The notes under the pieces are model-generated. The model did no database searches. It was not told the DNA's origin and saw only the letters and a list, made by a program, of their open reading frames with translations. A stretch of 52,850 bases of DNA from a virus (taxonomy: Duplodnaviria; Caudoviricetes): IMG/VR virus record IMGVR_UViG_3300032271_000563, positions 1-52,850 of that record. The stretch is one strand, 5' to 3'. The translations under genes were made by a program, and so were the position numbers. Shown one piece after another: positions 31,797 through 35,772 of this stretch (position 1 is its first letter; each line of letters begins with the position of its first letter).

Positions 31797-33455
31797 ATGG
31801 CTCAACTAAGCGGAATGTGGACTCTAAGTCAAGTAAGCCAAGCGGTAAAGGCTGGGCAGTGGATAGGCTTTCCGCAAACAGTTGAGTATCTGATAGTTGC
31901 TGGTGGAGGTGGTGCAGGATGTAGTTATTCTGGTGGAGGAGGTGCTGGAGGTTTAATTGCAGGTCAAACTTCGATTACTCAAGGAATAACTTGCTATGTC
32001 ACAGTAGGTAGTGGTGGGGCTGGCTCGACAAATCAATCCTCTGCGGGTTCAACTGGTGGTGCATCAGTATTGTTGGCTACATCGTCTGGAGCAACTACTG
32101 GTAATTTTGTTGCATCTGGTGGTGGTGGTGGTGGTAGTAATCTTTTAACTTCAGGAATTTCTGGTGGTTCTGGAGGTGGTGCATCGCAATCAACCACAGT
32201 TGGATCAGGAATATCAGGTCAAGGAAATGCAGGTGGTACAGGCACTACATCAGCGGCTTATGGAGCTGGTGGTGGTGGTGGTGCTGGCACAATTGGTCTA
32301 AATGGAGGAACAACCGTTGGCGGTAATGGTGGGGCAGGTATTGCTTCATCTATAAGCGGAGCAGTTGTCACTTACGCTGGCGGTGGTGGCGGTGGAATAA
32401 ATTCTGGTACAGGTGGCACAGGTGGAATTGGTGGGGGCGGTAGTGGAACAAGTTCAAGCGCTACTGGAGGATCAGGATCATCTAGCACTGGTGGCGGTGG
32501 TGGAGGTGCTGGCGGTACTGGATTAGGCGGTGCAGGTGGCTCTGGAATAGTCATCATACGTTATCAAAGTAATCTTCAATGGTTTATAGGCGGTTACGTT
32601 TCTTCTTATGGTGGATACATCATCCATCAATTTACGTCTTCTGGGTCATTGACTCCAACATCACCTATAAGCCTAAATAGCAATGTTGTTATCTTTACAG
32701 TTTCAGGCGTATGGACAGCACCCGCAGGTGCAACTCAAGTTCAATACTTAGTTGTTGGTGGCGGAGGTGGAGGTGCTAGGTATGGAGGAGGAGGTGGAGC
32801 TGGTGGATATAGAACAGCCACAGGGCTTTCTGTCACAGCTGGTACTACTTATTCTGTAACCGTTGGTGCTGGTGGTGCTGGTGGAACTGGAGGAGGTGGT
32901 GGTACTGGAATAGGACAAAATGGAACAAATTCTATATTTAGTTCAATTACTTCGACAGGTGGCGGTGGTGGTGGAAGTGGGCCATCCTATGATGGTTCAT
33001 CAAATGGGGTTGGACAGTCTGGTGGATCAGGTGGCGGTGGTGGATATTCTGCATCGTATTACACAGGAGGTGCGGCATCTCCAAGTGGTCAAGGAAATGC
33101 TGGCGGTGGAGGCGAAAATGGGGCTTCTTATGGGCTTGGTGGCGGTGGAGGAGGTGCTGGAGCCGCAGGACAAAGTTGGTCTTCTGGAAACACTCTTCAA
33201 AATGGTGGCGTTGGTTTAGCTAGTTCAATAACAGGAACATCCACTTACTATGCTGGTGGTGCTGGAGGCGGTGGTGGTATATCCAATGCAACTGGTGGAA
33301 CTGGTGGTTTAGGAGGTGGTGGTAATGGAGCAGGTTATTCCGCTAATAATGGCACAGCAGGAACCGCCAATACTGGTGGGGGTGGTGGAGGTCAAACTAC
33401 ATACGCAAATGGATATAACGGTGGTTCAGGTATCGTAATTATCAGGTGGAGTTAA
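31797..33455 (+). CDS. glycine-rich domain protein (2 domains)
   Basis: paralogue of 28832..30526; both end GIVII(K/R)WS. Confidence 0.8.
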   Translation: MAQLSGMWTLSQVSQAVKAGQWIGFPQTVEYLIVAGGGGAGCSYSGGGGAGGLIAGQTSITQGITCYVTVGSGGAGSTNQSSAGSTGGASVLLATSSGATTGNFVASGGGGGGSNLLTSGISGGSGGGASQSTTVGSGISGQGNAGGTGTTSAAYGAGGGGGAGTIGLNGGTTVGGNGGAGIASSISGAVVTYAGGGGGGINSGTGGTGGIGGGGSGTSSSATGGSGSSSTGGGGGGAGGTGLGGAGGSGIVIIRYQSNLQWFIGGYVSSYGGYIIHQFTSSGSLTPTSPISLNSNVVIFTVSGVWTAPAGATQVQYLVVGGGGGGARYGGGGGAGGYRTATGLSVTAGTTYSVTVGAGGAGGTGGGGGTGIGQNGTNSIFSSITSTGGGGGGSGPSYDGSSNGVGQSGGSGGGGGYSASYYTGGAASPSGQGNAGGGGENGASYGLGGGGGGAGAAGQSWSSGNTLQNGGVGLASSITGTSTYYAGGAGGGGGISNATGGTGGLGGGGNGAGYSANNGTAGTANTGGGGGGQTTYANGYNGGSGIVIIRWS

Positions 33456-33456
33456 G

Positions 33457-33651
33457 ATGACTGACACTGAAAAAGACTTAGCTGTCCACGTTGCAGTCTG
33501 TGATGAGCGTTACCGCAACATTGAGGAATCACTGAAAAGCGGAGAAAGGCGCATGACCAAGATTGAGTATTTGATCTATGCTGTAATGGTAATGGTTATG
33601 TTTGGCCCAGGCGTTGCGGCGCAATTCTTTCATAAATTCTTTGGAATCTAA
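33457..33651 (+). CDS. small coiled-coil plus TM protein (holin/antiholin-like)
   Basis: HVAVCDERYRNI coil then one hydrophobic helix; starts the lysis cluster. Confidence 0.55.
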   Translation: MTDTEKDLAVHVAVCDERYRNIEESLKSGERRMTKIEYLIYAVMVMVMFGPGVAAQFFHKFFGI

Positions 33652-34151
33652 TGGACCCAATCACTATTTTTGCGGCGTGTAAAGCGGCTCACGCAGGGAT
33701 TCGTGAGTGCATTGATCTTTACCAGGATTTTAAAAAAGACGGCAAAGATGTTGGTGACATTGTTGGTGACATTGGTAAAAATTTAGGTTCGTTCTTTACG
33801 CATCAAGAATCGTTTAAAGAGGCTGAAAAAGAGGCTAAAAATAATCCTTTGCCTAAAAATGTCAGTGTCAATGAAGAGGCAATGAATAGAATTTTGCGTC
33901 AACAACAAATTAGTCGCATGGAAATTGAATTGCGTGAAATGATCATTTACCAAATTGGTATGCCTGGTCTTTGGACTGAATTTGTACAAATGAGGGAAGT
34001 GGTTAAAAAAGAGCGCGAAAAAGTCGAGCGTGAACAAAAAAAGCACGTGAAGACGCCGCTTATAAAAGGCGTCAATTTATTGCCAAATGGGAATTTCGGG
34101 CGGCAATTTGTGTTGCAGTTTTTGCGTGGGTCATGGTCTTTAGCGTACTGA
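33651..34151 (+). CDS. lysis-region protein; -1 frameshift form would extend to 34195 with a TM helix
   Basis: MDPITIFAACKAA start; A-AAA-AAG at 34037-34043 plus hairpin. Confidence 0.7.
   Translation: MDPITIFAACKAAHAGIRECIDLYQDFKKDGKDVGDIVGDIGKNLGSFFTHQESFKEAEKEAKNNPLPKNVSVNEEAMNRILRQQQISRMEIELREMIIYQIGMPGLWTEFVQMREVVKKEREKVEREQKKHVKTPLIKGVNLLPNGNFGRQFVLQFLRGSWSLAY
34037..34073 (+). other. putative programmed -1 ribosomal frameshift signal
   Basis: in-frame A-AAA-AAG, 8-nt spacer, GACGCC/GGCGTC stem; -1 frame open to TAA 34193-34195. Confidence 0.7.
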
Positions 34152-34195
34152 TGTACGGCATCCACCTGGATTATCAAAAATCGAAAGGACAGTAA

Positions 34196-34690
34196 ATGGA
34201 TTGGCTGAAATCAATTGCTCCTACAATAGCCACAGCATTAGGAGGCCCACTAGCTGGCCTGGCTGTTAATGCCGTTTCATCTGCTTTGGGTATAGACCCT
34301 AGTAAAGTAGAAGAAACCATACAATCGGGCAAACTGTCTGCCGATCAAATAGCATCTATTCAACAAGCAGAACTTGGCCTTAAAGCTCGCGCACAAGAAC
34401 TTGGTCTTGACTTTGCTAAATTGGCTGTAGACGATAGAAAATCAGCCAGGGAACTTCAAGCAACAACCCGCAGTTTTATTCCCCCAGCTTTGGCCATTCT
34501 TGTTACGGTGGGTTTCTTCGGAATATTGGTGGGCATGATGATGGAAACATTTAGAACAAGTGAGGCTTTGATGCTGATGCTTGGGAGTTTAGGCACGGCT
34601 TGGACGGGGATCATTGCATTTTATTTCGGGTCTTCTGCTGGCTCACAGGCAAAAGATGATTTATTACACAAAAGCACACCTACAAAATGA
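34196..34690 (+). CDS. holin-like membrane protein (3TM, GTA-holin-like)
   Basis: IAPTIATALGGPLAG, DRKSARE, two C-terminal TMs, FYFGSSAGS; adjacent to endolysin. Confidence 0.7.
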   Translation: MDWLKSIAPTIATALGGPLAGLAVNAVSSALGIDPSKVEETIQSGKLSADQIASIQQAELGLKARAQELGLDFAKLAVDDRKSARELQATTRSFIPPALAILVTVGFFGILVGMMMETFRTSEALMLMLGSLGTAWTGIIAFYFGSSAGSQAKDDLLHKSTPTK

Positions 34691-35118
34691 CACAACTTAG
34701 CCCACATTTCTCTCTTGAAGAGTTAACAATCACTGAACATAGGGAGTTTGACAATGAACCTAATGAACTTGAAAGAGCAAATCTTGTCCGCCTTGCAAAC
34801 TTTTTGGAGCAAGTTAAAGAGCTATTGGGCGGCAAGCCTGTCATGGTTAACAGCGCGTTTCGGTCAGCCCAAGTAAATCAGGCAGTGGGGTCAGCTCCCA
34901 CGTCTCAACATAGGGTTGGCTGTGCGGCTGACTTGCGTGTGCCAGGCATGACACCAAATGAGGTGGTCCAAGCTATTATTTCAAGTGATTTGCCTTATGA
35001 CCAGTGCATAAGAGAATTTGACAGGTGGACCCATCTTTCTATAACAAACCATGAGGGCGAAAAGCCTAGACGGCAGGCTCTTATCATTGATAAAATGGGC
35101 ACAAGAGCTTACGCATAG
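34687..35118 (+). CDS. endolysin, peptidase M15A family
   Basis: LSPHFSLEEL, SAFRS, SQH..GCAAD, WTHLS Zn-ligand pattern. Confidence 0.9.
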   Translation: MTQLSPHFSLEELTITEHREFDNEPNELERANLVRLANFLEQVKELLGGKPVMVNSAFRSAQVNQAVGSAPTSQHRVGCAADLRVPGMTPNEVVQAIISSDLPYDQCIREFDRWTHLSITNHEGEKPRRQALIIDKMGTRAYA

Positions 35119-35127
35119 GGAATTATT

Positions 35128-35772
35128 ATGGCAACGTCAACATCGGTAATGACATATGACTCCTTAGTCAACAATGTCCAGGTTTACCTGGAGCGTACCG
35201 ACGCCACCACAATAGAGAATATTCCCCTTTTCATTATGTTGGCGGAACAGGTGATTGCCAGCCAAATCAAGTTTTTGGGCAATTTAACGGTCCAAGAATC
35301 AACAATGGTGGCAGGTAGCAATATTATTCCCAAGCCAGCCCGTTGGCATAAAACAGTTTCCATGAACCTTACGGTTGCATCGACAAACACTGACAATCCA
35401 GTATTGTTAAGAAAGTATGAGTATTTGAAAGAGTATTGGCCTATTCAATCAAATACTGCACAACCGCTTTATTACGCTGATTATGACTACGACAACTGGT
35501 TGGTGGCGCCGACACCAGATCAAAACTATTCATTTGAAGTTTTGTATTACCAGCGCGTTCAACCACTTGATTCTTACAACCAAACCAATTGGTTTACACA
35601 ATATGCCCCCCAGGCTTTATTGTTTGGCTCCCTACTCCAGGCAATGCCGTTTTTAAAGAATGACGAGCGTGGACCTATTTTCCAACAACAATACGATCTA
35701 ATCATGCAAACTCTGACAACAGAGGACAGGTTGCGGGTTGGTGATCGTCAAGCCGTAGTGGTGGATGCATGA
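35128..35772 (+). CDS. tail adaptor/tubular protein-like
   Basis: IPLFIMLAE, APTPDQNYSFEVLYY, TNWFT..AP.ALLFGSL motifs. Confidence 0.6.
   Translation: MATSTSVMTYDSLVNNVQVYLERTDATTIENIPLFIMLAEQVIASQIKFLGNLTVQESTMVAGSNIIPKPARWHKTVSMNLTVASTNTDNPVLLRKYEYLKEYWPIQSNTAQPLYYADYDYDNWLVAPTPDQNYSFEVLYYQRVQPLDSYNQTNWFTQYAPQALLFGSLLQAMPFLKNDERGPIFQQQYDLIMQTLTTEDRLRVGDRQAVVVDA

Follow-up and report, generated by a model that had tools for sequence, protein, structure and literature searches.

The window analyzed here, an IMG/VR virus record of 52,850 bases (estimated to be 94% complete), carries almost all of its long open reading frames on the + strand, and no tRNA genes were found in it. In + strand order, the region of interest encodes a 552-aa protein, a 64-aa protein, the protein studied here (whose gene is split between two reading frames and is termed the frameshifted gene), a 164-aa holin-like protein, an M15 endolysin and an SU10-type adaptor (Table 1). 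The 552-aa glycine-rich protein is probably a fibre-like structural protein. The 64-aa protein has the appearance of a tail-anchored protein, and its TAATG junction represents translational coupling to the frameshifted gene. Searches of Pfam and PHROG gave no family match for this small protein; it is related to an 81-aa protein at the equivalent position of L149, a relative in which the frame is continuous (50% identity over 30 aa, E 7e-07), and a conserved H.AVC.ERY motif is common to the N-termini of the two. The holin-like protein is likewise related to the product of the gene at the equivalent L149 position (33% identity, E 1e-14), and its counterpart stretch in MW202701.1 carries the annotation 'holin'. 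When INPHARED phages were searched, blastn returned a single weak match (to the holin), tblastn returned nothing, and no annotated isolate with the frameshifted gene was found. In a close relative, parts of the holin-like gene (34356-34700) are covered by contigs from X20, a metatranscriptome library of a lake, with 3-10 differing letters; this library may contain DNA, and the contigs are no demonstration of transcription. Coverage by RNA-library contigs was restricted to 34356-34700, and the slippery heptamer described below was not covered.

Table 1. Features of the frameshifted gene and its neighbors, in positions of the window.
Feature	Position	Strand	Remark
552-aa glycine-rich protein	31797-33455	+	GGxGG-type repeats; directly upstream of lysis cassette
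64-aa protein with hydrophobic C-terminal helix	33457-33651	+	Stop overlaps start of frameshifted gene (TAATG)
Frameshifted gene as called, 166 aa	33651-34151	+	Through the -1 frame: 33651-34195
Zero-frame part, codons 1-131: N-terminal helical domain ending ..EREQKK	33651-34043	+	Near-invariant to K131 (19 aligned homologues)
Slippery heptamer A_AAA_AAG	34037-34043	+	X_XXY_YYZ phase
Putative -1-frame extension, 50 codons + TAA: basic helix, TM helix, short tail	34043-34195	+	Codon-phase switch; alignment to P0123
Hairpin GACGCC 34052-34057 / 10-nt loop / GGCGTC 34068-34073	34052-34073	+	Candidate stimulator; MFE fold
Predicted transmembrane (TM) segment AAICVAVFAWVMVFSVLMYGI, 21 aa	34100-34162	+	-1 frame; counterpart TM in continuous-frame relatives
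Zero-frame stop TGA	34149-34151	+	Tail 34044-34148 (35 aa) not conserved
Holin-like membrane protein, 164 aa	34196-34690	+	phrog_1544 (unknown function), E 1.8e-17
Endolysin, Peptidase_M15_3	34687-35118	+	Pfam PF08291, E 9.8e-19; phrog_894 endolysin, E 1.1e-35
SU10-type adaptor	35128-35772	+	Pfam/PHROG searches

The frameshifted gene contains a run of seven A residues (34036-34042) followed by G at 34043, and the zero-frame codons at this site are CAA (34035-37), AAA (34038-40) and AAG (34041-43). Two other copies of AAAAAAG within the gene (33732 and 34005) are both in the wrong phase. The whole record has 31 copies of this heptamer versus 22 ± 5 expected, a number reached by 6 of 100 shuffles, and its occurrence is by itself unremarkable against chance. 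The -1 frame is closed by a TGA at 34031-33 and opens at 34034, one codon before the heptamer; between this opening and the 21-residue hydrophobic helix it reads KKAREDAAYKRRQFIAKWEFR. The order of the -1-frame peptide is TKKAREDAAYKRRQFIAKWEFR, AAICVAVFAWVMVFSVLMYGI and HLDYQKSKGQ, after which a TAA (34193-34195) abuts the ATG of the holin-like gene at 34196. The zero frame gives a product of 166 aa, and slippage would give one of 131 + 50 = 181 aa. An 8-nt spacer (34044-34051) separates the heptamer from the stem of the candidate hairpin. An earlier note on this DNA, made from the sequence alone, had given exactly these coordinates for the heptamer, together with the 8-nt spacer and the stem, and the anatomy that it described, with a -1 frame that continues into a transmembrane C-terminus and ends before the holin ATG to give 181 versus 166 aa, was reproduced. 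No open reading frame of at least 30 aa with its own start codon was found in the -1 frame. Independent initiation of the TM peptide was considered and ruled out, because the -1 frame has no start codon.

The frameshifted gene was then compared with its close relatives at the protein and DNA levels. A protein search gave 220 homologues; the 120 listed have lengths of 157-173 aa, with none near 181 aa. Alignment of 19 homologues revealed a sequence that is almost invariant up to ..EREQKK, after which conservation collapses and the tails end variably. All 120 of the listed close homologues have the KK junction, and a TM-like stretch after residue 90 was detected in none of these 120. For DNA comparison, the best 80 of 176 IMG/VR relatives' loci were taken together with the record itself. 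The heptamer is kept in all 81 of these sequences, which include 45 distinct 127-nt versions, and an identical frame break is present in 79 of the 80 loci, from many samples and with nucleotide divergence nearby of up to ~30%. In these 79 loci the -1 frame reads KKA.E.A..KRRQFI.KW..R, a TM helix and LMYGIHLDYQKSK. Logan contigs from three other studies, which omit rare variants, run across the heptamer without any insertion or deletion. The gene is split between two frames at the A run in well over a hundred related phages, and the degree to which relatives keep the heptamer, the break and the peptide of the -1 frame is far above chance.

Two sequences depart from this pattern. The sole exception among the 80 loci, L063 (1136-1750), carries one additional base ~20 nt before the heptamer, by which the N-domain and TM tail come to lie in one frame, though separated by an in-frame TGA; this base may stem from faulty sequencing of an old sample, or the locus may be a variant dependent on readthrough. 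The 95-aa fragment P0145 follows the zero frame for nine residues past KK (PWSWLRSKG) and then has the conserved tail (RQFIDKWQVR plus TM); a second indel here restores the frame without slippage, and the fragment could represent either compensation that arose naturally or an assembly chimera.

To recover distant relatives, representatives at 50% identity were searched exhaustively without a profile, which gave 127 hits. A length of 140 aa or more was found for 104 of these; a single frame with a strong TM segment at the C-terminus is present in 80, while 7 are intermediate and 17 are without TM. A continuous frame with the basic stretch, TM segment and LMYG[IV]H.DY was found in P0123, P0126, P0128, P0131, P0139 and P0152, and the continuous forms of ~220 aa have an extra outside domain of ~50 aa with two conserved Cys residues. 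The -1 tail of the frameshifted gene aligned to residues 134-179 of P0123 (43% identity, E 2e-11) and the N-domain to residues 1-136; since the tail aligns directly after the match of the N-domain, the shifted product would be colinear with the ancestral full-length protein.

In nine of the 17 TM-less representatives (P0122, P0125, P0127, P0129, P0151, P0153, P0155, P0164 and P0212), the KK junction is followed by unrelated sequence, and this junction falls in a single alignment column. The P0125 clade, at ~41% identity to the 166-aa protein, has GCA AAA AAG in all eight loci read, the P0129 clade has GAA AAA AAG in 3/3 loci, the P0164 clade (L168, positions 1880-1910, and L169) has A9G in 2/2, and L171 (P0151-like; positions 1870-1900) has an A9 run at the junction, each with a TM-containing -1 tail. 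In at least four further clades, at about 30-40% identity, the frame is thus interrupted at this junction, the run being A7G or A9. On a rough tree, forms with a broken and with a continuous frame are intermingled, with 6 changes of state, at least 4 of which are forced by well-supported branches; this tree was built from 36 of 128 rows, 92 having been dropped by a strict motif/length filter, so the count of changes is rough.

The explanation that the A7 run was wrongly sequenced or assembled, in a gene that is truly one continuous frame, has virtually no chance of being correct, since, for all that homopolymers are error-prone, that L063 has its extra base nearby and that P0145 is back in the tail frame after nine residues, the same break recurs in 79/80 loci despite divergence of up to ~30%, in three independent assemblies without an indel, in 120/120 listed close homologues and, at the same junction, in other clades at about 40% identity. 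The alternative that the earlier note had kept in reserve is thereby refuted, and its main proposal, that -1 recoding at a real and conserved site supplies a C-terminus with a transmembrane segment, is borne out by the 81/81 heptamers and 79/80 frame breaks.

Codon-position analysis was performed on 51 distinct 390-nt segments. Upstream of the heptamer, entropy by codon position in the zero frame was 0.49/0.30/1.14; downstream it was 0.75/0.46/1.30, and this pattern was found in the -1 phase only. The ratio of synonymous to non-synonymous codon differences downstream was 19145/20532 in the -1 frame compared to 4462/37090 in the zero frame. By this approach, purifying selection moves to the -1 frame at the heptamer, with the -1 tail behaving as coding sequence. 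The -1 stop is followed at once by ATG in 14 of the 81 sequences, as in the record, and lies in a TGAG[T/C]TGG context in 45 more; in L063, L089 and L091, loci that were read through, this context is an ATGA overlap with the start of the next gene. The zero-frame tails stop 28-43 codons after the heptamer across relatives.

These data bear on two further explanations. By the first, phase variation at the DNA level, A7 and A8 variants coexist and the A8 minority alone makes the anchored protein. The site is a homopolymer, the A9 runs of the sister clades are more mutable and rare variants are omitted from contigs; against this, no A8 or continuous variant was found among the 81 sequences of the clade or the 120 listed close proteins, and expression by a minority only would not sustain purifying selection in every lineage. 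We consider this explanation very improbable. Only a shade less improbable is the second, that the gene is decaying or split, such that the N-domain alone is functional and the TM-coding region is an untranslated remnant. Gene callers do predict the zero-frame open reading frame, and the interspersion of broken and continuous forms on the tree is compatible with decay. An untranslated remnant, however, would have gathered stops and indels; instead, the -1 tail has a coding-type substitution pattern across the 51 distinct sequences, retains the motifs of the family (TM and LMYG[IV]H.DY) and has a stop that stays coupled to the start of the next gene.

The region downstream of the heptamer was analyzed for RNA structure. 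Taken alone, the stem of the record falls short of significance: its z is -1.46, and 16 of 200 shuffles fold equally well. Among 39 distinct downstream segments, a hairpin starts 3-12 nt past the heptamer in every one, and comparison to dinucleotide shuffles gave a mean z of -2.2, with z < -2 in 26/39; because the sequences are related, such shuffle statistics overstate the support. Under a synonymous-codon null in which the -1 peptide was kept, the mean MFE was -13.0 versus -8.4 kcal/mol (mean z -1.53; p<=0.05 in 16/40), and none of the other windows along the gene, of 17 tested in all, was as extreme as the segment after the heptamer. A control window of 48 nt within the N-domain coding region (33882-33929) had a nearly as strong mean z of -1.42 across 40 relatives, which may reflect a second RNA structure or a lenient test.

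RNAalifold gave an empty consensus on the 39 distinct sequences. The GACGCC/GGCGTC pairs are kept only in near relatives of the record (65.6% paired family-wide versus 68.2% for a slid control), and most relatives have a different hairpin 8-10 nt downstream of the heptamer. The majority helix, GGCUGC/GCAGUU plus three inner pairs, lies 3 nt further on and is 74.9% paired versus 25-59% when slid; its covariation is modest (0.160 versus 0.117; 3/500 shuffles). Outside the clade of the record, strong hairpins (p<=0.03) were detected in 4 of 6 distinct sequences of the P0125 clade, and hairpin enrichment was found in 0/2 sequences of the P0129 clade and in 0/3 of the A9 clades (L171, z +0.33). Among A7G sequences, L082, L089, L159 and L161 had no enrichment (p 0.13-0.40). 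Hairpin enrichment in the A7G clades is moderate, and suggests that a suitably spaced hairpin of one kind or another is selected for, which would favor ribosomal frameshifting in these clades. Of the features that the earlier note had proposed to look for in homologues, the broken frame (79/80) and the heptamer (81/81 with the record) were found together with a hairpin that is common at a similar distance, but the specific GACGCC/GGCGTC stem proved to be specific to a clade. No conserved Shine-Dalgarno (SD)-like stimulator was found upstream in the 81 sequences of the record's clade or in the P0125 clade loci.

Taken together, these results make it very likely that recoding of some kind occurs at A_AAA_AAG. 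With the gene broken at the A run in over a hundred phages, the membrane anchor would be made only by programmed slippage, and we propose with good confidence that this is one gene in two frames, for which programmed -1 recoding, probably ribosomal in the A7G clades, is needed to generate a tail-anchored full-length form. Standard decoding would yield the 166-aa protein, composed of the conserved 131-aa helical N-domain and an unconserved 35-aa tail, and a -1 shift at the heptamer would yield the 181-aa protein, corresponding to the full-length form of the family; both products would be expected to accumulate. If the shift is ribosomal, it would proceed by tandem slippage of tRNA-Lys aided by the hairpin 8-10 nt downstream. 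According to the review of Atkins et al. (PMC5009743), no heptamer shifts more readily in E. coli than A_AAA_AAG, which is also the site of dnaX; only one tRNA-Lys is present in about half of bacteria, and shifting is easiest when CC follows on the 3' side. Here the consensus of the family at the site is AAAAAAGCC, and the record itself has CA in place of CC. Given recoding, we regard a ribosomal mechanism as reasonably probable in the clade of the record.

The main alternative, especially for the A9 sister clades, is transcriptional slippage, in which RNA polymerase adds one A within the A7 run and the resulting A8 mRNA is translated normally into the same 181-aa protein. To our knowledge, polymerase slippage has no hairpin requirement, and the enrichment of a downstream hairpin in the A7G clades argues against it there. 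Every broken clade uses a homopolymeric A run and never another type of heptamer, which speaks for polymerase slippage, as does the presence of A9 without hairpin enrichment in two clades (L168/L169 and L171). Runs of 9 A/T are described in the relevant part of PMC5009743 as slipping efficiently by bacterial polymerase, and Ebola GP, where slippage switches between soluble and transmembrane forms, is a precedent from the same source. Such a run of about nine is found in L168/L169 and L171, but the record and the 80 loci of its clade have only A7, fixed in 81/81 sequences, and the efficient bacterial cases quoted in that text use 9. The G closing the run never varies, which also counts against polymerase slippage, though this G is forced as well by a conserved Ala codon of the -1 frame. 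Overall, transcriptional slippage appears unlikely as the explanation; the A9 clades, in which the lack of hairpin enrichment fits this mechanism, may rely on it.

Under the proposed -1 recoding, the full-length product would be a membrane protein of a family without assigned function. The 166-aa protein matched phrog_32327 (function uncharacterised; E 1.2e-6 over residues 1-132), as did 7/10 continuous relatives. Pfam searches of the 166-aa protein and 10 continuous relatives gave sub-threshold noise only and no holin family, and matches were limited to unnamed viral clusters in the ESM Atlas and to uncharacterised proteins of uncultured phages in BFVD. The continuous relative P0123 was modeled by AlphaFold2 from 70 aligned sequences (pLDDT 91.9). 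In this model, helices 3-30, 35-68 and 77-106 form a three-helix bundle, and a long helix (111-199) runs through the basic stretch and TM segment. Foldseek gave no match with E < 0.7 against the PDB, and a wide search with VIA found generic three-helix bundles, including syntaxin Habc domains, at Z 8-11, which is below a meaningful level for helical proteins. Based on the model, the 181-aa form is predicted to comprise a three-helix bundle in the cytoplasm, followed by a long helix of basic character, a single TM segment near the C-terminus and a 10-residue outside tail, and would with this architecture be a tail-anchored membrane protein. The N-in/C-out topology is predicted from the basic residues before the TM segment and from the Cys pair after it in the longer relatives. 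A unimolecular spanin or lipoprotein, with IFAAC as lipobox, was also considered and rejected because the N-terminal Cys is not conserved: Cys10 is invariant among close homologues only, and is replaced (mostly by Q, also by K, G and S) in 21 of 26 distant relatives read. The N-in/C-out topology likewise speaks against this assignment.

The frameshifted gene belongs to a lysis cassette, as had been proposed from the record, with the holin-like gene and M15 endolysin downstream and with synteny shared by a continuous-frame relative. Gene order in this relative, L149, is as in the record: an 81-aa small TM protein, the gene itself, a holin-like protein, an M15 endolysin and an adaptor. In L153 the gene adjoins a 118-aa TM protein, a 171-aa protein that looks holin-like by eye and a protein that looks lysozyme-like by eye. 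A different context was found for continuous relatives of ~217 aa in L121, L141, L143, L150 and L155, where the gene is followed by a secreted protein of 150-176 aa. The five relatives also have a different outside domain (PELG.CFIPKG..GY....LRWV.C) and no holin or endolysin downstream. With a secreted protein in place of holin and endolysin, the gene family is not confined to recognizable lysis cassettes. Of the features expected for a holin or antiholin, the frameshifted gene has the cassette position, and its protein gave no holin family match (Pfam; phrog_32327 only).

A role of the frameshifted gene in lysis, including its timing, is plausible from gene position alone. That the ratio of soluble to anchored forms is regulatory and acts on lysis is a tentative proposal, which we hold at low confidence. 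With similarly low confidence, recoding may serve as the rheostat of a new device for lysis timing, acting through the neighboring holin-like protein. Lineages of the family would then have switched repeatedly among three routes to the anchored form, namely an uninterrupted frame, frameshifting by the ribosome at A7G with its hairpin, and slippage of the polymerase at A9. By such a rheostat, the efficiency of the slip would fix the ratio of the soluble three-helix bundle to the tail-anchored form.

The site resembles the -1 programmed frameshifts of E. coli dnaX and the IS3 family, which have A_AAA_AAG in the same phase and a conserved site (PMC5009743). A hairpin 8-10 nt downstream, in the phage gene a predicted one, and a -1 open reading frame without its own start are likewise common to these systems and the phage gene. 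Unlike dnaX and IS3, the phage gene has no conserved upstream SD-like element, and its hairpin is short and varies between clades. The shifted product would be the long, ancestral form in the phage gene, as for IS3 OrfAB, and is the short form in dnaX. In addition, the zero frame of the phage gene runs for 28-43 unconserved codons past the site, whereas the classic cases stop soon after it. Among phages, tail chaperone and capsid frameshifts of the lambda G/GT type rely on a conserved -1 slip in a late gene to add a C-terminal extension at a fixed ratio. The phage gene differs from these in belonging to another family and to a lysis cassette, in having as extension a predicted membrane anchor rather than a binding domain, and in that many relatives of its family have a continuous frame. 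For this comparison we drew in part on the PRFect paper.

Slippage likewise selects a soluble versus transmembrane C-terminus in Ebola GP (sGP versus transmembrane GP) and PRRSV nsp2TF, as outlined in the corresponding passages of PMC5009743. Ebola GP involves polymerase slippage and PRRSV a protein-stimulated -2/-1 shift; both are eukaryotic RNA viruses, and there is no homology to the phage gene. The known MS2 case, as treated in the same text, works differently from the frameshift of the phage gene. The modeled phage protein is similar in layout to tail-anchored proteins of the syntaxin type, with an Habc bundle, long helix and C-terminal TM segment. Structural matches to Habc domains were 1lvf_A (Z 10.2), 2dnx (Z 9.9) and 1s94_B (Z 9.6), Z values that are common for helical bundles; the likeness is a resemblance only, with no sequence similarity and nothing at E < 0.7 by Foldseek. 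Lambda S105/S107 are a holin/antiholin pair made from one gene by dual starts. The likeness to this pair is a functional analogy only, in that timing could be governed by two lysis-cassette products of unlike membrane topology; the lambda pair uses alternative starts instead of frameshifting, and the phage protein matched no holin family in Pfam.

In the literature covered, no account was found of frameshifting that equips a protein from a dsDNA phage's lysis cassette with a membrane anchor. The mechanism is classical; the gene family and its use of recoding are new, and provide a well-supported case of recoding beyond the classes familiar from phages, namely tail chaperone, capsid, transposase and dnaX. 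Gene callers truncate the frameshifted gene in relatives, and with all 120 listed homologues being zero-frame artefacts with a junk tail, the membrane anchor of the family is invisible in annotation. The interspersed broken and continuous forms, with A7G and A9 at one junction, represent a natural series in which to study why and how recoding arises, and the compact cassette is well suited to asking whether the efficiency of the slip tunes lysis.
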